Shown: positions 39,740-64,000 of the stretch, piece after piece
How the letters are laid out: each line of letters begins with the position of its first letter
How positions within the stretch are numbered: the stretch's first letter is position 1
Assembly: GCF_003018235.1 (NCBI RefSeq)
Contig: NZ_CP027437.1
DNA from: Escherichia coli
GTDB taxonomy: Bacteria > Pseudomonadota > Gammaproteobacteria > Enterobacterales > Enterobacteriaceae
Direction: 5' to 3' (one strand)
Length of the DNA stretch: 64,000 bases
Program-made: the position numbers and the translations under genes
The notes under the pieces: model-generated
Told to the model about the DNA's origin: nothing
The model's database searches: none
Seen by the model: only the letters and a program-made list of their open reading frames with translations

Positions 39740-41810
<2,071 letters not shown>

Positions 41811-42153
41811 TCAAAGCGATATTCAGCATTACTGGAATCTGCGAATTGTCGCCAGTTCGCTATGTTTAAGCCCCAGCCTGCTCAAAAAGAAATTAAAAAA
41901 CGAAAATACCAGCTATAGCCAGATTGTCACAGAGTGTCGTATGCGTTACGCCGTACAGATATTATTGATGGATAACAAAAATATCACTCAGGTAGCGCAA
42001 TTATGTGGCTATAGCAGCACGTCGTACTTTATCTCTGTTTTTAAGGCGTTTTACGGCCTGACACCGTTGAATTATCTCGCCAAACAGCGACAAAAAGTGA
42101 TGTGGTGAAGGGCAAAGCGGAAACAGATAAGACGGGCATAAATGAAGAAGAAA

Positions 42154-42198
42154 TGGCGCGCCCTGCAGGATTCGAACCTGCGGCCCACGACTTAGAAG
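42154..42198 (-). other. 45-nt 3-prime fragment of tRNA-Arg (argU-like), probable prophage attachment-site remnant
   Basis: tggcgcgccctgcaggattcgaacctgcggcccacgacttagaag is the reverse complement of the 3-prime half of argU (acceptor stem, T-arm and anticodon stem) as I recall it; similarity stops abruptly at the anticodon. Confidence 0.6.
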
Positions 42199-42620: not shown

Positions 42621-43574
42621 ATGCGGGCGAAACTTCTGGGAATAGTCCTGACAACCCCTATTGCGATCAGCTCTTTTGCTTCTACCGAGACTATATCGTT
42701 TACTCCTGACAACATAAATGCGGACATTAGTCTTGGAACTCTGAGCGGAAAAACAAAAGAGCGCGTTTATCTAGCTGAAGAAGGAGGCCGAAAAGTCAGT
42801 CAACTCGACTGGAAATTCAATAACGCTGCAATTATTAAAGGTGCAATTAATTGGGATTTGATGCCCCAGATATCTATTGGGGCTGCGGGCTGGACTACTC
42901 TCGGCAGCCGGGGTGGCAATATGGTCGATCAGGACTGGATGGATTCCAGTAACCCCGGAACCTGGACAGATGAAAGTAGGCACCCTGATACACAACTCAA
43001 TTATGCCAACGAATTTGATCTGAATATCAAAGGCTGGCTCCTCAACGAACCCAATTACCGCCTGGGACTCATGGCCGGATATCAGGAAAGCCGTTATAGC
43101 TTTACAGCCAGAGGTGGTTCCTATATCTACAGTTCTGAGGAGGGATTCAGAGATGATATCGGCTCCTTCCCGAATGGAGAAAGAGCAATCGGCTACAAAC
43201 AACGTTTTAAAATGCCCTACATTGGCTTGACTGGAAGTTATCGTTATGAAGATTTTGAACTCGGTGGCACATTTAAATACAGCGGCTGGGTGGAATCATC
43301 TGATAACGATGAACACTATGACCCGGGAAAAAGAATCACTTATCGCAGTAAGGTCAAAGACCAAAATTACTATTCTGTTGCAGTCAATGCAGGTTATTAC
43401 GTAACACCTAACGCAAAAGTTTATGTTGAAGGCGCATGGAATCGGGTTACGAATAAAAAAGGTAATACTTCACTTTATGATCACAATGATAACACTTCAG
43501 ACTACAGCAAAAATGGTGCAGGCATAGAAAACTATAACTTCATCACTACTGCTGGTCTTAAGTACACCTTTTAA
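42621..43574 (+). CDS. ompT: omptin outer membrane protease OmpT
   Basis: 317-aa ORF with a signal peptide and C-terminal F; recognised as OmpT. Confidence 0.9.
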   Translation: MRAKLLGIVLTTPIAISSFASTETISFTPDNINADISLGTLSGKTKERVYLAEEGGRKVSQLDWKFNNAAIIKGAINWDLMPQISIGAAGWTTLGSRGGNMVDQDWMDSSNPGTWTDESRHPDTQLNYANEFDLNIKGWLLNEPNYRLGLMAGYQESRYSFTARGGSYIYSSEEGFRDDIGSFPNGERAIGYKQRFKMPYIGLTGSYRYEDFELGGTFKYSGWVESSDNDEHYDPGKRITYRSKVKDQNYYSVAVNAGYYVTPNAKVYVEGAWNRVTNKKGNTSLYDHNDNTSDYSKNGAGIENYNFITTAGLKYTF

Positions 43575-43823: not shown

Positions 43824-44573
43824 TCAGTCAATTGTTTTGTTTATTCCATCTGTGACGCCGATTACTTTCTCAAAATAATGAGATGGCGTGACACCATAAT
43901 AATCTTTAAATGCACATATGAAATATGAAGTACTGTTATAGCCACATTTCTGGGCTACAACATTGATAGAATAAGAGTTTGAAGTTATGAGTTTTTTTGC
44001 ATACCTCATCCTAGTGTCTCTCAATACTTCAGTAAATGACGTTCCTTCATCCCTTAATCTTTTTTTTATTAAACTTTCACTCGTATAAATCAATTCCGCA
44101 ATATCTTTTAAATGCCATTGCCGCTCAATATTAAAACTGATTATTCCAGTAATTTTACAGGTAAATGTATTTATATTTGTTAGTATAAATGAATTTACAC
44201 TTTCGCGTTTTTTGAACATGGCAAGTAAGGATATACATAGTCGTTCTTTTAACCAAAGGGAGTGTGAGTCTGCTATTTTAATCCCTTCAAACAGAGAAAA
44301 AACAAGCGATAATGGAGGTTCCTCTTCAGCAATATAGTCATTCTTATCAAGAGTAAATTTGCCAGGCAGCTCATTATTCACGTCGATAAAAAAGGATAAA
44401 CATGTTTTCTTATCTATATCAACAATTCTTAGTTTAGAGGGGCATACTGGTAACTCCCTTCTAATTTTGTCGCTTACAATAAACAATGAATTTTTTTTGA
44501 ACGAGATAACTCTCCTGTTTATAATTAAATCAAATGATTGACAGATGAAAACTACGGAGCAAACATAATCCAT
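43824..44573 (-). CDS. appY: AraC-family transcriptional activator AppY
   Basis: 249-aa AT-rich ORF with a C-terminal AraC helix-turn-helix; recognised as AppY. Confidence 0.9.
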
Positions 44574-45237
44574 CTTGCACCTATCATAAAATTAAAACAA
44601 GTTGATAATAGTCAAATAACAACCAATTAAATACACAATCATAATCAGGATGATGTGCATTTATATTTTTATACACAAAATTATAGTTTGCAAATTTTAA
44701 TAAATTTCATTTAAGATTAAATTATTATATGTATATTATTTTTTATTCTAACGTATTTCAAAGTTACATTTTTCAACGCTTACTATGCTTTTTATTAACA
44801 TAAACTCACTACAACGCACCTGAAACCTCTTGCTATATATATGTCAACCGTTTGAATTTAAAATAAAAAGAGTATCATTTTTACTTGCATTTCTTATCAA
44901 GTCACATTCAACAACAGTAACAAAACATTATTAGAACCATTCAATTAACAAAAAACCAACATCCGGATTGCTTAACTTTTCTTTATTAAACGATATTGAA
45001 AATCAATTGATAAAATACATCTAAACAACTTTTTGGGGCGCAAAAGCATAACATCAAACCAACAAATAACACACCGAAAAAACTCACAATTAATAACCTA
45101 TGATATACATACTGTTTATTATGGTTGAATAAGCCACTCGATATCTGGCGTAACGGAAGTGTCTACACTGTTCAGCAGCACCCGATACTTCCATGCCTCT
45201 AGCAACAATCTTTCCTCCTCCGTTGTAATTTCCAGAT

Positions 45238-45378
45238 CTACAGCATGCTGAAGTGGCGCAATATGCTCACTCTCATTTTACCCTCAAAAATCCGGTCACA
45301 TTCTGCACAGTTCAACGCATTACGTTGTAGATCGGTGTTCTGGTCATTTGTTGATACACGTACATAGCCAATAAGCAT
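45238..45378 (-). pseudogene. remnant of a Gin/Pin/Cin-family serine DNA invertase (46 codons)
   Basis: Minus-strand [37 protein letters not shown]..., whose first 30 or so residues match the invertase N-terminus including the catalytic-Ser region; then it diverges and stops. Below the ORF-track size cutoff. Confidence 0.6.
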
Positions 45379-45440
45379 GTTAAATCCCCTTGGTAAAAGC
45401 AGGAATGATGCCATTTGCTTGTTATTTCTTCATTTTCATA

Positions 45441-45460
45441 AACGTTGGTTTGGGAGAAGG
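45441..45460. other. gix/cix-like recombination site (distal), inverted repeat of the site at 47279..47298
   Basis: aacgttggtttgggagaagg; its reverse complement matches gcttctcccaaaccaaggtt at 18 of 20 positions. Confidence 0.5.
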
Positions 45461-45926
45461 CTCTGCATTACCTGTTGGTGTGCCTGTTCCATGGCCTTCA
45501 GCCACACCGCCAACAGGCTGGCTGAAATGCAACGGTGCGGCATTTTCTGCTGAAGAATACCCGGAACTGGCAAAGGCTTATCCAACAAATAAATTACCTG
45601 ATTTACGCGGTGAGTTTATTCGTGGCTGGGATGACGGGCGCGGTATTGATGCAGGACGTGTTTTATTGAGTATTCAGGCCGGAATGCTGGAAAAGCACCG
45701 TCATCCTGTTGTCGCCAACGATGAGTATGACTCAAAAGAGGAATGGGAACTAGCGACAATCTTCAGAAGAGCATATAAGCAAGGCAGGGGGCTTGATGCT
45801 GCCGCTGCCGGAGGGAGTCTGATCCCATCACCGACACTTCATTCACGAGGGAGTATCGGTAATACTGGCGGGAGTGAAACCCGTCCACGAAATATTGCAT
45901 TTAACTATATCGTGAGGGCTGCATAA
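45441..45926 (+). CDS. alternative tail-fibre C-terminal segment in the currently unexpressed orientation
   Basis: C-terminal part of track ORF 45390..45926 with tail-fibre motifs (LPDLRGEFIRGWDDGRGID, NIAFNYIVRAA); there is no plausible start of its own, and the region upstream of the crossover site is not fibre-like. Confidence 0.55.
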   Translation, partial: NVGLGEGSALPVGVPVPWPSATPPTGWLKCNGAAFSAEEYPELAKAYPTNKLPDLRGEFIRGWDDGRGIDAGRVLLSIQAGMLEKHRHPVVANDEYDSKEEWELATIFRRAYKQGRGLDAAAAGGSLIPSPTLHSRGSIGNTGGSETRPRNIAFNYIVRAA

Positions 45927-46528
45927 TGGATAACGCCGTATTAAATAGCGAGCTTATTACCACGAAGGCGGGGAATATTACCGTCTATAACTATGATGGT
46001 GAGACGCGGGAATATATTTCTGCATCAACTGAATATCTTGCAGTGGGTGTCGGTATTCCAGCATATTCCTGTTTAGACGCTCCTGGTACATCTAAGGCTG
46101 GTTATACAATTTGCCGTTCTGTGGATTTAAAATCATGGGAATATGTGTCAGACCATCGCGGTGAAATCGTCTATAACACCGAAACGGGAGATGCCAAAGA
46201 AATCACAGCACTAGGCGACTATCCCGAAAATACAACCACTATCGCCCCGTTAACGCCATACGATAAATGGGATGGTGAAAAATGGGTGACAGATACTGAG
46301 GCACAACACGGTGCCGCAGTAGAAGCGGCAGAAGCACAGCGCCAGTCACTGATTGATGCAGCAATGGCTTCCATCAGTCTGATTCAACTGAAATTGCAGG
46401 CCGGACGTAAACCGACGCAGGCAGAAACAACCAGACTTAACGCTGTGCTGGATTACATTGACGCGGTGACGGCAACAGATACCAGCACCGCGCCGGATGT
46501 CATCTGGCCTGAACTGCCGGAGGCGTAG
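45926..46528 (+). CDS. tail fibre assembly chaperone (Tfa), partner of the alternative fibre segment
   Basis: 200-aa ORF whose start overlaps the preceding stop; conserved Tfa C-terminus. Confidence 0.7.
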   Translation: MDNAVLNSELITTKAGNITVYNYDGETREYISASTEYLAVGVGIPAYSCLDAPGTSKAGYTICRSVDLKSWEYVSDHRGEIVYNTETGDAKEITALGDYPENTTTIAPLTPYDKWDGEKWVTDTEAQHGAAVEAAEAQRQSLIDAAMASISLIQLKLQAGRKPTQAETTRLNAVLDYIDAVTATDTSTAPDVIWPELPEA

Positions 46529-46943
46529 GCCATTCAATATCTGGCGCACTGGAGGTATCAACCAGCTCCAGTGCATCCAGATAATCCAGCCACAAATTAT
46601 ATTGCGCCAGTTCCTCACCTTTCAGACGACCAATAGCGGCTTTACCGGGCCATTGTTTACTGTTCATGTATTCGTTGGCCTGGTTAATCAATAATTGCCT
46701 CTCTGATTCGGCCTGTTCAATAAGTTCCTCATGTGATGGTGGAGGTATTTCAGCCCATGTGGGAAAACCATTTTCCCCTGCAACTCGGATTTTCCCTTGT
46801 GGCGGTTCCGCCATATATTTTACAGAAATATCATCAGGAATATCTAATGCATTAGCAGGCCATGTTCCATTTACTTCATAAGTGTTTTTTAAATTAACAG
46901 CATAAAAAGCATTTTCCGAAGGGGAATAAATATATTGATTCAT
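46500..46943 (-). CDS. tail fibre assembly chaperone (Tfa), expressed orientation
   Basis: 147-aa ORF convergent with the other tfa and overlapping it by 29 bp; conserved C-terminus SSAPDIEWPTPP. Confidence 0.7.
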   Translation of the reverse strand: MNQYIYSPSENAFYAVNLKNTYEVNGTWPANALDIPDDISVKYMAEPPQGKIRVAGENGFPTWAEIPPPSHEELIEQAESERQLLINQANEYMNSKQWPGKAAIGRLKGEELAQYNLWLDYLDALELVDTSSAPDIEWPTPPAVQAR

Positions 46944-46944
46944 A

Positions 46945-47583
46945 TTATCTTCCTATTGCGATAATCATAGTTCCATACAAACCATTTCCGGTTGATACTT
47001 TTAAGGTTACTGATGTCCTTGTTGTCGTGTACCCCATAAGTTTAAAGGTCGGAGCAGCCGTTAATGTGCCATCTGACCATAAGGCACTAACAGCCAGTGC
47101 GCCTGAAGGAAATGCAATAGGGAAATTACCTGTAGTTCCGTTAGTGTCCGCCCCATAAACATTCATCGAAAACATTTGGACAATATGACCACTTGGTAAC
47201 TGAAACCAGTTTTTGCCAGATGGAAATGCAGACATATCTGGTATCTGATTTTCCCCTGTTCCCACATTCCGTTTTGCCGCTTCTCCCAAACCAAGGTTTT
47301 CGAGAGCCGTTTTCACCGTGCCGTCCGATTTGATATCGCCAAACGGATTTTTGCGGCTTAACAGCAGCGCACGAAGCGCGGTAAGCAGCTGGTCATGCCG
47401 CCCCTTCTCCAGGCTGGCACCGGATGCCTCCACCACGCTGCAGAGTTCTTCCTGCAACATGTCAAAGTAGTCATCATCCAGATCGGTGGCAGGTGTGCCG
47501 GTCTGGGGGTTACCACGGGTAAAACCGTTCTTACCCGCGCCGAACTTATCCTTCTGCGCGGTTTTCGTGTCTATACGATGCAT
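46945..47583 (-). CDS. tail fibre protein (constant N-terminus plus variable C-terminus)
   Basis: 212-aa ORF; the crossover site lies inside the gene near codon 95. Confidence 0.7.
47279..47298. other. gix/cix-like recombination site (proximal, inside the tail fibre gene)
   Basis: gcttctcccaaaccaaggtt, inverted relative to 45441..45460. Confidence 0.5.
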
Positions 47584-47586
47584 GGA

Positions 47587-58047: not shown

Positions 58048-58432
58048 TGCTGCCTCCGTGACTCTGCCTACATTCGCCCAGCTCCGTACACTCCAGCAGC
58101 AGAAAGCGCCGCGCCCCGTTCAGATCGCGCTGACGTTTCACCCGGTACACACTGTCACCGCAGACCACCTCATAATCAGCGGTGATCCCCCGGCGGTAAC
58201 GAATGGTGATGTAATGGGTGATGGCGTCCCCTGTCTGCGCGGTTTCCTGCCAGGTGGTGGCACTGGTCTGGATAACCTTCGCCCATGTCCGGAACGTAAC
58301 CGGGTATTGAGGCTCCACGCCAAAGTTATCCGCGGGCATATCCACCCGCAGGCGGATCAGGACGCGTTTATTCAGTTCACCGGGGTCCGGCAGAATGTAG
58401 GTTGCGCTGGTCTGCGCCTGACGAATTTTCAT
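58022..58432 (-). CDS. head closure / head-tail adaptor protein
   Basis: 136-aa ORF between connector and tail-completion genes. Confidence 0.5.
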   Translation of the reverse strand: MKIRQAQTSATYILPDPGELNKRVLIRLRVDMPADNFGVEPQYPVTFRTWAKVIQTSATTWQETAQTGDAITHYITIRYRRGITADYEVVCGDSVYRVKRQRDLNGARRFLLLECTELGECRQSHGGSNGDSLFSR

Positions 58433-58752
58433 TGCGGAAAGTACCTGTACGGGCCGACAAGCCAGCCAAAACTCTGCGGCATGTCGAGTTTCTCCACTTC
58501 CGTAACCGACGAGCGGTTTTCGTAAAAATGGCTGATAAGCATCAGCATCCCCAGACGAATATCATCCGGCAGGTGCAGCCCGTCCGGATCGCTCTCCGGA
58601 ATGGTTTCATCCGGTGCATAGAGCTTCCGGTTCAGATACGTTTCCGTCCGCTTTTGCGCCGCACAGGCCAGCAGTTGCAGATGGCGGTCATCAGCATCGA
58701 AATCCTCATCCAGCCGGAGTTGGGCTTTAATCTCTTCCATTGTCAGAAGCAT
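58429..58752 (-). CDS. head-tail connector protein (gp6-like)
   Basis: 107-aa ORF immediately downstream of the capsid module. Confidence 0.5.
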   Translation of the reverse strand: MLLTMEEIKAQLRLDEDFDADDRHLQLLACAAQKRTETYLNRKLYAPDETIPESDPDGLHLPDDIRLGMLMLISHFYENRSSVTEVEKLDMPQSFGWLVGPYRYFPQ

Positions 58753-58754
58753 AC

Positions 58755-58955
58755 TCAGCCCTCTTTACTGGTCGTGGCTTTTTTCTCTTTTGCCGCTTTA
58801 CTGCTTTTTGCACTGGTTCCGCGCTCTGCTAACCCGGCCTGAAGTGCAATCTCCTGCACCCGGGCAGGAAGCGCCCCATCGTCATACTCACCGGCCCGAA
58901 TGACCTCAACACGCATACCGTCCGGTGACCATTTCAGATCTTGTTTCAGGATCAT
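58755..58955 (-). CDS. hypothetical small phage protein
   Basis: 66-aa ORF with a Lys/Ala-rich tail, between capsid and connector; function unknown. Confidence 0.35.
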   Translation of the reverse strand: MILKQDLKWSPDGMRVEVIRAGEYDDGALPARVQEIALQAGLAERGTSAKSSKAAKEKKATTSKEG

Positions 58956-59004
58956 GATTCTTCACCCGTCAGAACAGGGGGCGCGGTTCCGCGCCCCTGA
59001 GTGA

Positions 59005-60210
59005 TTACGCCGCTGCAATCTTCAGCAGTTTGATGGCCTGCGAATCGACCAGCATCCCGCCGGTGCGCTTGGTGGTATAAAAACCGACAAACGGTTTATT
59101 GGTGTACGGGTCACGCAGAATGCGGGTGCCGATACGGTCAACGATGGTGTAACCCCGTTTGAAGTTACCAAATGCAATGGCTTTCGCATCAGCGGCGATA
59201 TCCGGCATCTGTTCGTTTTCAGCGATACCGTAACCCGCCAGAGAGGACGGCTGCCCCAGTTCCAGCCCCGGACGCCACAGATAGTTACCCTCGCTGTCTT
59301 TAAGCAGACGGATGGCAAACAGGCTGTTGTTGTTCATCATGAACTTCGCGCCAGTGCGGTGTGCCTTACGCAGCGTGTAAATCAGTTTGATAATGGCGTC
59401 TGCGGTCACCGCGGTCGCTTCGCCGGATACAATATGCTGAAGTTTGCCGAACGCCCGGACCTTGTCGGTTTCATCAGTGGATTCATACGCCAGGAACCCT
59501 TTCGGCTTCTTGGTGCCATCGCCTGAGGTAAAGGCAATTTCTTCCTGTTCGGCAAATTCGGTTGCCAGCTCGCTGTTGATCCAGGCCTCCACGTTGAAGA
59601 AGGCATCGTCCAGCATTTTCTGGGTAGCCTGCGGGTTGCCGTAGATTTCCCCCATGAGAGGTTCAATCAGCTCCAGTCTGGAGGTGGCAGTCTGGGATCG
59701 CGTATCCGTTTCCCCCACCCATCCGGAAGCCGTACCGCCCAGATTCACCAGTTTTTTGTAGTCGGAACCGCCAACGGTGATCACCGTGGCTTCCTGACGC
59801 ATCACCACTTCATCTTTCAGCAGGTTAAGAATGTTGCGATCCAGTTCTTCCGGCACGGCGTAGCCACCGTCTTCATCGGTACCCACCTGCAATGCCTTAC
59901 GCTCCAGATCGCGCAGACCGTCTTCACGGCCTTTACGTAGAAAGCCCACAAACGCCTCTTTATGCTCGGTGGCCAGTTTATTTTGCGCTCCACCTGCCGG
60001 ACGTTTCAGCTCAAGCAGCTCTTTTTCAAGGTCGCTTTTGAGATTTTCCAGCTCGCTGAGTTTCCCGTTCAGGGTTTCCACCTGCCCGGCAAGCTTGCCT
60101 TTTTCCTGCTCAATCGCATCCACGCGCTTGTCGTTCTTTGCTTTGAAGTCGTCAAACTTCTGCTGCAGCTCCTGCGCGACCTGTTCGACATCTTTAATAT
60201 CAACCGCCAT
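59005..60210 (-). CDS. major capsid protein, HK97 family
   Basis: 401-aa ORF with an N-terminal coiled-coil delta domain followed by an HK97-like fold region. Confidence 0.85.
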   Translation of the reverse strand: MAVDIKDVEQVAQELQQKFDDFKAKNDKRVDAIEQEKGKLAGQVETLNGKLSELENLKSDLEKELLELKRPAGGAQNKLATEHKEAFVGFLRKGREDGLRDLERKALQVGTDEDGGYAVPEELDRNILNLLKDEVVMRQEATVITVGGSDYKKLVNLGGTASGWVGETDTRSQTATSRLELIEPLMGEIYGNPQATQKMLDDAFFNVEAWINSELATEFAEQEEIAFTSGDGTKKPKGFLAYESTDETDKVRAFGKLQHIVSGEATAVTADAIIKLIYTLRKAHRTGAKFMMNNNSLFAIRLLKDSEGNYLWRPGLELGQPSSLAGYGIAENEQMPDIAADAKAIAFGNFKRGYTIVDRIGTRILRDPYTNKPFVGFYTTKRTGGMLVDSQAIKLLKIAAA

Positions 60211-60224
60211 CGTATTTCTCCTGA

Positions 60225-60911
60225 TTAGAAGTTCAGATTTTTCAGTGCATTCAGTGCAGAGCCCACATCCTCAGCGTCGCGCAGGGACAGTGCGCCATAG
60301 CCCCCGGCCATGAATGCTTTGGCCTGGGTACGGGAGAGTCCGACATCACGCAGGACTCTTTCGATTTTTTTCTGTTCGGGGATTTCCCCGCGGGCCAGCG
60401 CGTTCTTGACGTCGCTGATCCGCGCCTCGTCGTTAGACGGAAACGTCACCAGACTGACTTCCCAGAGGTCGATTTCTTTCAACAGAAAGGCTTCTTTGCT
60501 CCGGTCGTATTCCCAGTCTTTCAGGACGTACCCAATAGAAAGGCCGGTTAACGAACCGGCCTTCATGTGTGCATGTGCGCGTTTTGCGAGGGGATCATCA
60601 TCAATAAGCAACCGTCCCCTGACGTAAAGCCCGACATCGTCTTCCTTCATTTCGGTGTAAACACCGATGGGTTCATCCATGCGGTGCTGCCAGAGCAGCG
60701 CAGGTAACGCTTTTCTGTCACTCCACGCCCGCAGGGAAGCAGCAAATGCCCCGGACATCACCACATCATCGTGGCTGTCCTTTACACCAAAGACGGAGCC
60801 ATACCCTTCAAACTCACCGGAGTCACTGACAGATTTCAGACTCAGCGGTACATCAAGACGTTGTTTCGTCTGCATTGGCGTTATCCTTCTGCTTACCGGC
60901 TTTACTGCCAT
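60225..60911 (-). CDS. prohead maturation protease, HK97 family
   Basis: 228-aa ORF between portal and capsid; the true start may lie at an internal Met, since the track ORF overlaps the portal end by 59 nt. Confidence 0.75.
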   Translation of the reverse strand: MAVKPVSRRITPMQTKQRLDVPLSLKSVSDSGEFEGYGSVFGVKDSHDDVVMSGAFAASLRAWSDRKALPALLWQHRMDEPIGVYTEMKEDDVGLYVRGRLLIDDDPLAKRAHAHMKAGSLTGLSIGYVLKDWEYDRSKEAFLLKEIDLWEVSLVTFPSNDEARISDVKNALARGEIPEQKKIERVLRDVGLSRTQAKAFMAGGYGALSLRDAEDVGSALNALKNLNF

Positions 60912-62094
60912 CGGAGGGTTTCGTGGTCATGTTCATCGGTGTGAGATAGACATCCCCACCGGGACGCGGATTCATATCTTCCAGGTCGCGGCAGTCATTG
61001 GGAGAGTAAATTCCCCAGTTAATCCCGGTGGCGTAGGCTTCAAAACGGGACTTCATATCCCCGCGCAGTAACGCCCCGGCGTTAAATTTGGCGTAATAAA
61101 CGCCCTGCTTACTTTTTCGTACCAGTCCGGTGTTGATCCGCTGCTCAATGCGGGTCAGATACGGCACCAGTGAATAGTTGATAAATCCCAGCCCCAGCTC
61201 TTCGATATTGTTGAAGGTGGCGCGATCGGTGTTCTGCACCATGTGCAATGGCACACGGAACAGACGACAGATTTCTTCAAGCTGAAACTTGCGGGTTTCC
61301 AGGAACTGGCTGTCCTCGGCGTTCAGCGCCATCGACTTCCAGTCCAGCCCCATCTCAAGGATCATCGGGCGGTGAGCATTACCAAGCCCGGTGTGACGCT
61401 CCTCAAAATCTTTCTTCAGACGCTCATAAGCCTGATCCGACAGCGTCTGCTCTGTACGCAACACACCGGACGTCACCGCACCATTGCTGAACAGTCTGGC
61501 CCCGTGCTCTTCGGTCGCAGCTGCCAGCGATATTGCCTCGCGGGCATAGGCGATGGGATTCAGTCCCACCAGACCGTCCAGCGTCAGCGTGCGCACATGC
61601 CAGATATCTTCCTGGCTCAGTACATCCGTGGAGCCGTCCGGGAATGTGACCTGGTAAACCGGTTCCCAGCTACTGTTAAGCTTCGGTACCACACAACCTG
61701 GGTCGACGGGCAGCAGTTCAGCCACTTCGCCAAATGCTTTCACTTTGTAGGCGTAAAAGTTTCCCCGCAGGCACAGACAGGTGATCACCAGCTCCCAGAA
61801 CTCCTGCGGCGTCATATAGCCATTGGGATGCGTGGAGATCAGCTTATGCAGACGTTCGCCGGTGGCTCTCTGTTTCAGGCTGCCGTTCAGGTGATACAGG
61901 TTGCAGGGCAACATCCCGACCGACTCCGCCAGCACCCTGACGCAGGAAAAAACCGCCGTCAGTCGCATGGCCCGCTGGCTGCTGATCTGCTTTCCGGTAT
62001 AGGTGTCATATGACAGCCCGATAGCATCCGCCAGCTCTGCTGGCGTGGTCACCGGTGCGTCACTTTTTCGTTGAAATAATCCCGAAAAGAACAC
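60853..62094 (-). CDS. portal protein, HK97 family
   Basis: 413-aa ORF upstream of the protease/capsid genes. Confidence 0.85.
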   Translation of the reverse strand: MFFSGLFQRKSDAPVTTPAELADAIGLSYDTYTGKQISSQRAMRLTAVFSCVRVLAESVGMLPCNLYHLNGSLKQRATGERLHKLISTHPNGYMTPQEFWELVITCLCLRGNFYAYKVKAFGEVAELLPVDPGCVVPKLNSSWEPVYQVTFPDGSTDVLSQEDIWHVRTLTLDGLVGLNPIAYAREAISLAAATEEHGARLFSNGAVTSGVLRTEQTLSDQAYERLKKDFEERHTGLGNAHRPMILEMGLDWKSMALNAEDSQFLETRKFQLEEICRLFRVPLHMVQNTDRATFNNIEELGLGFINYSLVPYLTRIEQRINTGLVRKSKQGVYYAKFNAGALLRGDMKSRFEAYATGINWGIYSPNDCRDLEDMNPRPGGDVYLTPMNMTTKPSDGSKAGKQKDNANADETTS

Positions 62095-62276
62095 TATTTA
62101 CCTCCGCCGACAGACGGCTGTGTACGGTCGAGATATCGCGCCACCAGCCACGACCAGAACAGGCACAGCGCCCCGGCAACAACAAACCCCGCCGGGGGAT
62201 AAATCAGCCAGGCACCATACGCCAGCAAAAGCGCACCCAGCACGCCCACCAGAGGCGCGAGAATCAGCATGATCAT
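62094..62276 (-). CDS. small two-span membrane protein of unknown function
   Basis: 60-aa hydrophobic ORF wedged between terminase and portal, start/stop-coupled to the portal gene. Confidence 0.4.
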
Positions 62277-62287
62277 AATTACCTCAG

Positions 62288-63949
62288 TTAAAGCGAGCGG
62301 ATCCCGTAGGACTCAATGTGATCAGACAGCGTGTCTTCTTTCTCGTACAGCATGGCTCTGCCAACCGCCATAATCAGCGCAACTGCACCATCAATTTTGT
62401 TTTCCGCCTGCTCCTTGACGGGCTTCACCACATCATCGTTACCCGGAATGGTTTTGCCGACCACGTTGCCGATACACCAGGTCATGATGGGATTGCCGTC
62501 ATGATGAAAACGCCCCGATTCAATTGCCGCTTCCAGCTCTTTCAGCGGGTCGGACATGTTGGTGTAGTTCTGAATGATGGTGATGGGGTTCAGGTCTTCA
62601 TCCGCAAGGTCATGCGACAGCCCGGTCGCCCCGAAGGGGTCGATGGGTGACTCACTGACCGGGCTGATTTTGTTCGCCGCTTTGGCCTCCTCGAGGATGT
62701 AGCGATAATCCACCTCCGCACCATCGGTAACGGTCAGAACGCCCATTTCCACCCATTTCTGAAAGCGCTCGGCTGTCCGGCGATCTTCATTTTTCTCGAC
62801 GCTGTACACCGTGTCATACGGTACCCAGAAGCGCGGAGCCACACTGTAGTAATGCGTTTTACCGTCAATCTCGCGGGTATAAAGTCGCGCCATACTGTTC
62901 ATATCCAGCTTACGCGCCAGGTCAAAGGCCAGAATGCACGGCTGCCCCTCAAACTGCTCAAGGGTCAGTGATTTATCCTCGCAGCTCTGCCAGCTCACCA
63001 GGTTGAAATACGCCGAACGCGCCGACACCCAGATATTGAGGTGTTTTGTTTTAAAGACGTTTGCCAGACGGGCGTTATTTTTCGCACGCTGCTGCTGACT
63101 TAACAAAAATTCGCGATAAACCGACACGCCAATATTTGGATTGGCTTTTTCCAGCACCTGCGGGTCGGTCCAGTCGTCACCTTCATCAACGGTATAGATG
63201 ATCCCGAACAGTTCATCGTTGGGCACCGAGCCGTTGAGCATCTCGATGACTTCCCGCCGCTTGTCGTAGCACGGCCCCTCAATGTTGTACCCGGCAGTAG
63301 TAATGGCCCACATCAGTGGCTGACGTCGCGCCCCCATCCCGGTAAGCATCGTGGTGTAAAGCGCATCGGTGGCGTGCTCGTGATATTCATCCACCACCGC
63401 ACAGTGGGGTGATGATCCATCACCGGGGTTACCGATCAGCGGTTCAAAACGCGCACCATCCTCCGGACGGTTCATGTTTGAGGCGTTAACCTCAATCCCG
63501 AACGCTTCCGTCAGCATGGGTGTGCGTTTACACATCAGTCGCGCCGGGCGAAAGACTTCCCACGCCTGTTTCTCTGTCGTGGCACCGGAATACACTTCCG
63601 CGCCAAACTCGTTATCACAGGCAAAACAATACAGGGCGACACCGGCAGAGATTGCCGATTTGCCGTTCTTACGGGGGATTTCGGTATACACCTCACGGAA
63701 GCGGCGCAGCCGGGAGCCTTTATTGACCCAGCCAAACGCGCAGCAGATCACAAAGAGCTGCCACGGCTCCAGCGTGATGGGCATCCTCTTGAATGCCCAC
63801 TCACCCTTGGTGTGCGGCAACAGCTGAATAAATTTGGCGGCCCGTTCAGCCAGGTCCTTGTCGAAGCGGTAACGAAACGACTTACTTTTTTCCGCCATCA
63901 GGTCATCAAGATGGCGCTGGCAGGCCTGAATCACAAACTGGCAGGCCAC
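62288..63949 (-). CDS. terminase large subunit
   Basis: 553-aa ORF at the head of the structural module. Confidence 0.85.
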
Positions 63950-64000
63950 AATCTTTCCGCGAACGACATCCCGGGCATACTGATTGGCAGCATTTACGTT

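Follow-up and report, generated by a model that had tools for sequence, protein, structure and literature searches.

The 64,000-nucleotide stretch of Escherichia coli DNA analysed here (the window) closes with a block of genes, from approximately 45280 to 64000, which probably represents the late operon, encoding the virion, of a temperate phage of the SfV-like type, or 'lambdoid myovirus', resident as a prophage in the argU/DLP12 site; a rough probability of 0.64 is given to this reading. The particle-building gene block looks intact, and the prophage type is very common in E. coli and Shigella and has already been described. Phages of this type join lambda-style regulation to an HK97-style head and a Mu-style contractile tail, and what may appear as a mosaic is the standard architecture of the whole SfV-like group and not an event local to this strain. 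The mosaic nature of the group has reportedly been known since the sequencing of SfV. SfV-like prophages already have a definition as lambdoid Myoviridae, with five sites used in E. coli (PMC3603311), and in the relevant passage of that paper Allison 2002 and Bobay 2013 are cited for the group. The head-to-sheath block was present in 830 of 5,426 complete E. coli genomes.

Packaging, head and tail genes

Profile searches, which had been suggested as a check on the sequence-only reading, placed the ORFs in phage families, and Pfam, PHROGs and NCBIfam agreed with the gene order and identities it had proposed from terminase to baseplate (Table 1). The portal, protease and capsid proteins all scored above the curated cut-offs of TIGR01537, TIGR01543 and TIGR01554, with concordant Pfam assignments. 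TerL showed 98-99% amino acid identity to SfIV and vB_EcoM-720R4, and the corresponding ORF of a sister assembly (GCA_041857655.1) encodes 577 aa. The tail was found to be collinear with that of Mu, with homologues of gp38, L, gp43 and gp44-48 giving eight tblastn matches of 30-45% amino acid identity. Together with the HK97 models and the 97% nucleotide identity to SfIV, SfII, SfI and SfV, this bears out the SfV-like mix of head and tail lineages that had been suggested. No Mu-type head genes were matched in the region by tblastn against Mu, no transposition genes were seen, and the sister assembly has a lambdoid early region; given the HK97-type head in addition, a Mu-like transposable phage was rejected.

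Table 1. Features of the prophage and its border in the window, from attR to the large terminase (- and +, strand).
Feature	Coordinates	Strand	Evidence
attR, 45-nt copy of the tRNA-Arg argU 3' half (anticodon loop to CCA)	42154-42198	-	exact 25-nt match, 0 expected by chance
ompT cargo	42621-43574	+	Pfam Omptin; annotation of matching genomes
appY cargo	43824-44573	-	Pfam HTH_AraC; annotation of matching genomes
Non-coding stretch and tfaX remnant	44574-45271		98% nt identity to K-12 DLP12, ends 45271
Pin-type serine invertase stump, 46-aa fusion ORF	45238-45378	-	alignment with annotated pinE and K-12 tfaX
Silent alternative fibre C-terminus (collar domain) and its chaperone	45390-46528	+	PF07484 Collar, PF02413
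Invertible fibre segment, 1.86 kb	45440-47299		inverted crossover sites 45440-45459 and 47280-47299
Assembly chaperone of expressed fibre	46500-46943	-	PF02413 at 6e-34
Tail fibre, 212 aa, expressed orientation	46945-47583	-	PF21882, phrog_1396
Baseplate set, homologues of Mu gp44, gp45, gp46, gp47, gp48	47587-51259	-	Pfam Gp44-like/GpP, Phage_Mu_Gp45, GP46, Baseplate_J, Phage_Mu_Gp48; collinear 30-45% aa Mu matches
DNA-circulation protein (Mu gp43/N-like, DNA_circ_N)	51256-52632	-	PF07157; 43% aa identity to Mu gp43 N-terminus
Tape measure protein	52657-54564	-	PF10145; TIGR01760; 99% aa identity to SfIV gp13
Tail assembly chaperone	54649-54972; 54565-54972 with putative -1 extension	-	PF10109
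Tail tube	54969-55325	-	PF10618 at 2e-33
Contractile tail sheath	55325-56821	-	three Pfam sheath domains; 36% aa identity to Mu gpL, full length
DUF2635 protein (Mu gp38 homologue)	56805-56975	-	PF10948; 42% aa identity to Mu gp38
Neck module: 66-aa ORF, gp6-like head-tail connector, head-closure protein, Neck1/tail-completion protein, tail terminator	56984-58955	-	PF05135, PF05521, PF23840; phrog_1020, phrog_879
HK97-family major capsid protein	59005-60210	-	PF05065 at 3e-79; TIGR01554 384 bits
HK97-family prohead protease (S78)	60225-60911	-	PF04586; TIGR01543 158 bits, cut-off 59
HK97-family portal	60853-62094	-	PF04860 at 6e-108; TIGR01537 portal_HK97 260 bits, cut-off 112
60-aa YmfR-like small protein	62094-62276	-	phrog_502; annotated ymfR in NZ_CP159453
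Large terminase TerL	62288->64000	-	Pfam TerL_ATPase and TerL_nuclease; open to window edge (base 64000), ~7 N-terminal codons missing

The structural genes had been read as uninterrupted, and each of the 23 minus-strand proteins indeed aligned over its full length and without gaps to an isolated phage or a close prophage. Twenty-one aligned end to end with SfIV or vB_EcoM-720R4 at 96.7-100% identity; the remaining two, the fibre and its chaperone, gave full-length matches to a close E. coli prophage (99.1% and 96.6%). Overlaps of 1 to 59 nt were counted at 14 of the 22 gene junctions, in keeping with the claim that most overlap, with the others spaced by 1-84 nt. Within the tail assembly chaperone gene a putative −1 frameshift site (T TTT TTT) lies at approximately 54715-54721, and frame analysis found the −1 frame open to the start of the tape measure gene.

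SfIV (NC_022749) has the same late gene order, with an HK97-type head and contractile tail, and shares 97% nucleotide identity over 91% of the region; for SfV, SfI, SfII and SfIV the range was 96.6-97.3% over 56-91%. Twenty of the 23 minus-strand proteins were 97-100% identical to those of SfIV, including the SfIV-type tape measure and chaperone, with the head-closure protein at 90%, whereas Neck1 (60%), the fibre (68%) and the fibre chaperone (34%) differ. SfIV also uses a different integration site and has gtr serotype-conversion genes following its fibres, in contrast to the ompT-appY cargo and argU att core found here and the DLP12/PhiR68_2-type early region of the sister assembly. Electron microscopy of SfIV showed a myovirus whose head measures 55 nm and whose contractile tail measures 101 nm (PMC3851460); the present prophage may also be inducible and form particles. 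The isolated myovirus vB_EcoM-720R4 (ON470603) showed 97.6% nucleotide identity over 94% of the region, with Neck1 at 99.4% and the same arrangement of terS, lysis and HNH genes beyond terL. It differs in the fibre C-terminus (78%) and its chaperone (69%), and its record starts at the silent chaperone gene, with neither the invertase stump nor the ompT-appY block.

It is expected from well-studied families that induction would give a single rightward late transcript, on the minus strand and read from the Q/lysis side. The terminase, with terS and an HNH protein encoded just outside the window, would then package DNA into the HK97-type head (portal, S78 protease and capsid). The neck proteins would connect this head to a Mu-type contractile tail consisting of sheath, tube, −1-frameshift chaperone, tape measure, gp43-48-like baseplate and a short fibre with its chaperone.

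Fibre switch and truncated invertase

The stretch 45238-47583, holding the fibre, its chaperone, the invertible segment and the invertase stump, was absent from the sequence-only reading. The expressed fibre, 99% identical at amino acid level to that of a prophage of strain muskdeer13-4, keeps its constant N-terminal ~95 codons outside the invertible segment, and the silent fibre covers positions 467-638 of the 673 of phrog_523, thus only the C-terminal part. Both crossover sites, a 20-nt inverted repeat of 95% complementarity with the core AAACC-AA-GGTTT, and the opposed fibre/chaperone pairs are features of a switch of the Din family (Gin/Cin/Pin/Hin type). The topology is the S-U-U'-S'-invertase order of the Mu G segment, although the invertase is truncated here. 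Alignment with pinE found no intact invertase gene adjoining the fibre segment, only a stump of ~32 of the 184 Pin codons fused to 14 unrelated codons, with the junction to the tfaX remnant at 45272-45280.

As the invertase gene has been cut and fused to this older tfaX remnant, the fibre could change orientation only if a Pin/Gin-type invertase came in trans from another prophage, and would otherwise stay locked. In L032, a related prophage with the same stump, the segment is reversed with breakpoints exactly at both crossover sites, which suggests that flipping of the orphan switch in trans may still occur. In RefSeq annotation of close relatives, the names ymfQ, ymfR, stfP, tfaE and pinE, given to the gp48-like gene, the 60-aa gene and the genes of the fibre switch, are those of the K-12 element e14 (ymfQ, ymfR, stfP/stfE, tfaP/tfaE, pinE), presumably a remnant of the same phage type. 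Unlike the present element, with its complete structural operon and broken pin gene, e14 is a remnant at icd with an intact pinE.

Prophage border and the region beyond the window

The position of the element at the DLP12 site, as had been proposed, was confirmed by a flank syntenic with K-12 (appY-ompT-envY-ybcH-nfrAB-cus), by K-12-like sequence running through the tfaX remnant up to 45271 and by the copy of the argU 3' half. The match to argU was extended from 25 nt to 45 nt by comparison with the argU sequence. This copy, as attR, places appY and ompT, with a G+C content of ~0.37-0.40 across the cargo region, inside the prophage borders; envY, next to it, is interrupted by an IS. Phage Kati has the same argU fragment between int and ompT, the K-12 layout is alike, and the order int-attP-ompT-appY-tfaX is found in the isolated phages Kati and PhiR68_2, both of which match the tfaX-remnant stretch up to the same base, 45271. 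The module had been given as 45238-64000, and this holds apart from the left end: 45238 is the stop codon of the 46-aa fusion ORF, and phage-derived sequence begins at approximately 45280.

The sister assembly showed one mismatch in 13,148 nt, and its contig breaks off at the IS found inside envY in the window. It carries terS, HNH, Rz, endolysin, holin, Q, ylcG, rusA, ybcO, ninE, ybcN, ybcK, emrE, P, O, a cro-like gene and an S24-type cI; no lesion was found in these 13 kb beyond the window. Lysis and regulatory genes, whose absence beyond the window would have spoken against the sequence-only reading, are present in this near-identical element, and the sequence covered there stops short of an integrase. 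Isolated ompT-carrying lambda-like phages match its early region at 95-98% identity up to Q, where homology stops. Among these, PhiR68_2, Kati and Turner (matching from cI to ylcG) are intact relatives of K-12 DLP12 that share with it the chromosomal site and an attR-ompT-appY-tfaX' block 98% identical to the present one. They differ in that their virion genes are of the lambda siphovirus type (Nu1/A, J, lom, stf) and their PinQ/PinR-type invertase is intact; compared to these phages, everything from Q onwards is replaced here and the virion module is of SfV type.

From its relatives, the whole prophage can be described as a probable hybrid, with an SfV-type virion module in place of the lambda-type one on a DLP12/PhiR68_2-type backbone, to which the argU att site, the ompT-appY cargo and, as carried by the sister assembly, cI-cro-O-P-emrE-ybcK-nin would belong. 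At the far end of L033, which has the same invertase stump, a 387-aa integrase lies beside a FimZ-like response regulator, an arrangement shared by L045 together with a DLP12-type early region. We take this to be the fimZ-argU-intD order of K-12, and an integrase and attL would be expected at the same place here. The size of the prophage is estimated from the sister assembly and relatives at ~41-43 kb. It is tentatively suggested that the argU-site phage lineage with ompT-appY cargo has two virion morphotypes, the lambda-type siphovirus of PhiR68_2, Kati and the decayed DLP12 and the SfV-type myovirus form seen here, the whole packaging, head and tail module having been swapped, and that the invertases of other resident prophages may flip the orphan fibre switch.

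State of the prophage and its meaning

A less likely reading, though one with an appreciable chance of being right, is that the prophage is defective and grounded, its late operon intact only because decay is recent, with excision, replication or packaging lost (for instance through loss of integrase or attL, an overlong genome or a lesion outside the window). The deletion/fusion that truncated the invertase has already hit the tail end; an IS lies in envY, next to attR; and what K-12 keeps at this site, DLP12, is a wreck. Gene loss in same-junction relatives (L032 without head and tail genes, L033 without nearly everything between O and the fibre chaperones) shows that this prophage lineage does decay. 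Against this, no lesion was found in the 23 late genes or in the 13 kb of the sister assembly, attR is intact, the estimated length fits the span of 35-43.5 kb among the records of isolated relatives, and SfIV, which has no invertase, is viable.

At 45272-45280 the two parts meet in an illegitimate fusion and not in an att site, and several other places in the chromosome, such as one next to ybhC, hold SfV-like late modules. Both points would fit two elements, an SfV-like prophage beside an unrelated DLP12 remnant (tfaX'-appY-ompT-attR) joined by deletion, in which ompT and appY would not be phage genes and excision would start from another att site. This is considered improbable, as the sister assembly already has an early region of DLP12/PhiR68_2 type (emrE, ybcK, ybcN, ninE, ybcO, rusA, ylcG), the integrase and FimZ-like regulator end L033 and L045, and the stretch between 45280 and 42154 showed no further att-like repeat. 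The exact appY-to-fibre junction was found in one piece in none of the 5,426 complete E. coli genomes, which could point to a chimeric assembly of a prophage contig and the appY flank. Such an artefact is very nearly discounted: the exact 46-aa junction ORF occurs on 36 independent public contigs (NCBI, ENA and Logan assemblies), always beside appY-ompT, and L034 matches 5.8 kb spanning the junction at 99.98% identity.

For the reading of an SfV-like prophage at argU, a suitable label is the late operon of an SfV-like prophage within an argU/DLP12-site prophage of ~41-43 kb (estimated), ompT and appY included. Its significance beyond correct annotation is small. At the DLP12 site, where K-12 has a wreck, an apparently complete relative of myovirus type can reside, which is useful for prophage-typing tools and for questions of ompT mobility, and the orphan invertible fibre segment offers a natural system in which to test Pin-type invertases acting in trans. 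If active, an argU-site SfV-type prophage would be a myovirus vehicle for ompT.

The late operon

ORF listing combined with profile searches against Pfam, PHROGs and NCBIfam revealed a minus-strand operon running continuously from the window edge to position 46500, its ORFs falling into phage head, tail and baseplate families (see the table). The sequence-only reading of this region as an HK97-type head joined to a Mu-type tail was borne out, with the portal, protease and major capsid protein all scoring above the NCBI curated (NCBIfam) HK97 cut-offs and a tblastn comparison with phage Mu giving eight collinear tail matches (gp38, sheath L, gp43 and gp44–48) at 30–45% identity. No match to the Mu head genes was found in this comparison. 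A lesion at the N-terminus of the terminase was ruled out: the GTG start listed at 63949 merely reflects the end of the window, to which the frame is open.

Overlaps were found at 14 of the 22 gene junctions, and the widest gap is 84 nt. This gap, the one "intergenic" interval of any size, is explained by the −1 frame of the tail chaperone, which was found by frame analysis to be open for approximately 55 codons, is associated with a T TTT TTT heptamer and runs to the start of the tape-measure gene. The heptamer (a putative slippery site) and the open −1 frame conform to the conserved tail-chaperone frameshift arrangement, which is known in phages such as P2 (E/E+E').

Features of the prophage, its surroundings and related loci (window coordinates unless another locus is named)
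Feature	Position	Strand	Remarks
E. coli core genes	1-39200		K-12 order, reversed
IS21-family element in envY	39777-41728		1,952 bp; IstA 340 aa, IstB 260 aa; 7-bp target duplication ACTTTCT
EnvY C-terminal ORF	41764-42108		114 aa, right of the IS
argU 3'-half copy (attR)	42154-42198		45 nt, anticodon loop to CCA
ompT	42621-43574
appY	43824-44573
Pin-tfaX fusion ORF	stop at 45238		46 aa
Pin-tfaX junction	45272-45280
Pin remainder	45378 down to ~45283		~32 codons
Fibre C-terminal fragment, second fibre chaperone	45390-46528	+	collar domain in fibre fragment
Inverted repeat	45440-45459, 47280-47299		20 nt
Fibre, fibre chaperone		-	fibre 212 aa
DNA-circulation protein; Mu gp44, 45, 46, 47, 48 homologues		-
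DUF2635 protein, sheath, tube, chaperone, tape measure		-
T TTT TTT heptamer	54715-54721		within tail chaperone gene
66-aa ORF, gp6-like connector, head-closure protein, Neck1, tail terminator		-	neck set
HK97-family portal, S78 prohead protease, major capsid protein		-
YmfR-like ORF		-	60 aa; after terminase in operon order
Large terminase	62288-64000	-	open to last window base
emrE, large serine recombinase	L021 3729-5842		sister assembly
Lysis genes joined to truncated gp47	L032 2521-5573
int, ydaT, O, two fibre chaperones	L033 936-5573
kwaA/kwaB	L025 4884-6467; L029 1908-3491; L030 16085-17668		Kiwa

Relationship to isolated phages

The 18.8-kb region showed 97.6% nucleotide identity to Escherichia phage vB_EcoM-720R4 over 94% of its length, and 97.0% identity to Shigella phage SfIV over 91%, while SfII, SfI and SfV gave 97% identity at 56–77% coverage. 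No paper describing vB_EcoM-720R4 was found. All 23 minus-strand proteins aligned end to end and ungapped with phage counterparts, which came from isolated phages except in the case of the fibre pair, matched by a close prophage. Of the 23, 21 were 96.7–100% identical to SfIV or 720R4 proteins; the structural genes are thus uninterrupted, as had been proposed. SfIV has been isolated, and under the electron microscope its particles are those of a myovirus, the head measuring 55 nm and the contractile tail 101 nm (PMC3851460). A tailocin or gene-transfer agent was ruled out, since the terminase and a complete complement of head genes are present and differ little from their counterparts in plaque-forming phages. 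A Shigella origin was likewise ruled out, with ompT intact and only one IS in the flank examined.

It is the pairing of an HK97-type head with a Mu-type tail that defines the "SfV-like" group, the lambdoid Myoviridae (Allison 2002 and Mmolawa 2003, both as reviewed in PMC3603311). The head-to-sheath block was present at a coverage of at least 80% in 830 of 5,426 complete E. coli genomes. Judged from these similarities, the late module is of a common and well-described type, and the sequence-only reading was correct but concerns a kind of phage already known from sequenced isolates at 97% identity.

Prophage border and fibre segment

A pattern search showed that the 3' half of argU is repeated in the interval separating ompT from the disrupted envY; the copy represents half a tRNA only, and ARAGORN detected no tRNA in the window. 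The same fragment lies between the integrase gene and ompT in phage Kati, that is, at attP, where a tRNA-Pro is annotated, and the same layout closes DLP12 in K-12. The suggested DLP12 position was therefore confirmed. The low-G+C stretch of appY and ompT is placed inside the prophage because the argU copy (attR) lies beyond ompT, as in both of these elements. Just outside attR, envY is split by an IS21-family element. The core region further left contains the ent/fep enterobactin cluster, the cus copper efflux operon, nfrBA and ybcH, with names based on the size of each ORF and on synteny with K-12; annotation was compared for the right-hand part of this core region only.

At the other side of appY, Pfam and PHROGs searches detected a plus-strand fibre fragment, covering only positions 467–638 of the 673-position fibre profile, together with a second fibre chaperone. 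An inverted repeat, whose core (AAACC-AA-GGTTT) is typical of crossover sites of the Gin/Pin/Hin kind, encloses a 1.86-kb segment here, its right-hand site falling within the expressed fibre gene, after approximately 95 codons. The S-U-U'-S'-invertase topology is identical to that of the Mu G segment. Whereas an intact pinE follows the fibre segment in a close E. coli prophage, only a stump of the invertase gene remains in the window, joined to sequence that shares 98% identity with the tfaX remnant adjoining appY in K-12. The start assigned earlier to the late module, 45238, coincides with the end of the resulting fusion ORF, a truncated invertase fused to the tfaX remnant. The fibres and their chaperones, the crossover sites and the stump were absent from that description.

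The exact fusion ORF was found on 36 public contigs, with appY-ompT alongside every time, so the junction is real and inherited; in one piece it was present in none of the complete RefSeq E. coli genomes. In L032, a locus with the same stump, the fibre segment has the opposite orientation with breakpoints exactly at both crossover sites, its interior being only 88–95% identical, so that the flip may have preceded or followed the truncation. Since the invertase is truncated, the fibre switch would be locked. SfIV is likewise without an invertase, so this need not block the formation of particles.

Completeness of the prophage

The portal match led to assembly GCA_041857655.1, whose contig shows one mismatch in 13,148 positions and breaks exactly at the envY IS, and which is regarded here as the source genome's sister; it was extended to cI via a rare 157-aa protein. 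The genes beyond terL are those for terS, an HNH endonuclease, Rz, endolysin, holin, Q, ylcG, rusA, ybcO, ninE and ybcN, and further on for a 508-aa YbcK-type large serine recombinase, emrE (multidrug efflux), P, O, a cro-like product and an S24-peptidase cI. This sequence, followed as far as cI, stops short of the presumed tyrosine integrase, to which the serine recombinase would be an addition. The cI-to-ylcG stretch shares 95–98% identity with lambda-type phages that have been isolated, among them PhiR68_2 and Turner, which carry ompT, and this homology ends at Q. It should also be noted that the anti-phage genes kwaA/kwaB occupy the position of emrE-ybcK in three related prophages, and a variable defence/moron slot appears to lie between P and the nin region.

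L033 is a decayed relative that shares this stump, and at its far end a 387-aa integrase lies beside a FimZ-like response regulator, the fimZ-argU-intD arrangement of K-12; a further locus, L045, is built alike at this end, and its early region is of DLP12 type. Pieced together from the sister and these two loci, which supply the integrase end, the prophage is estimated at approximately 41–43 kb, within the 35–43.5 kb of isolated relatives.

Most probably, the late genes in the window are the virion operon of a temperate phage of hybrid make-up, in which a DLP12/PhiR68_2-type backbone with its cargo is joined to a packaging, head and tail module of SfV type. The element is probably complete and inducible (probability roughly 0.64). 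The main rival, in which damage somewhere beyond the window has grounded it, is considerably less likely; decay is nevertheless usual at the argU/DLP12 site, as seen in DLP12 of K-12 itself and in the large deletions of L032 and L033. In L032 the lysis genes abut gp47 directly, heads and tails being deleted, and L033 retains only five genes before the stump, so that the two may be regarded as a decay series of the same prophage. That two elements are involved is poorly supported and improbable, and an assembly artefact is scarcely credible with the same junction ORF on so many contigs.

No literature linking DLP12 with SfV-like modules was found. Module exchange is textbook behaviour among lambdoid phages, and the combination of this backbone with this module, together with the orphan fibre switch, would be small additions to a known type.
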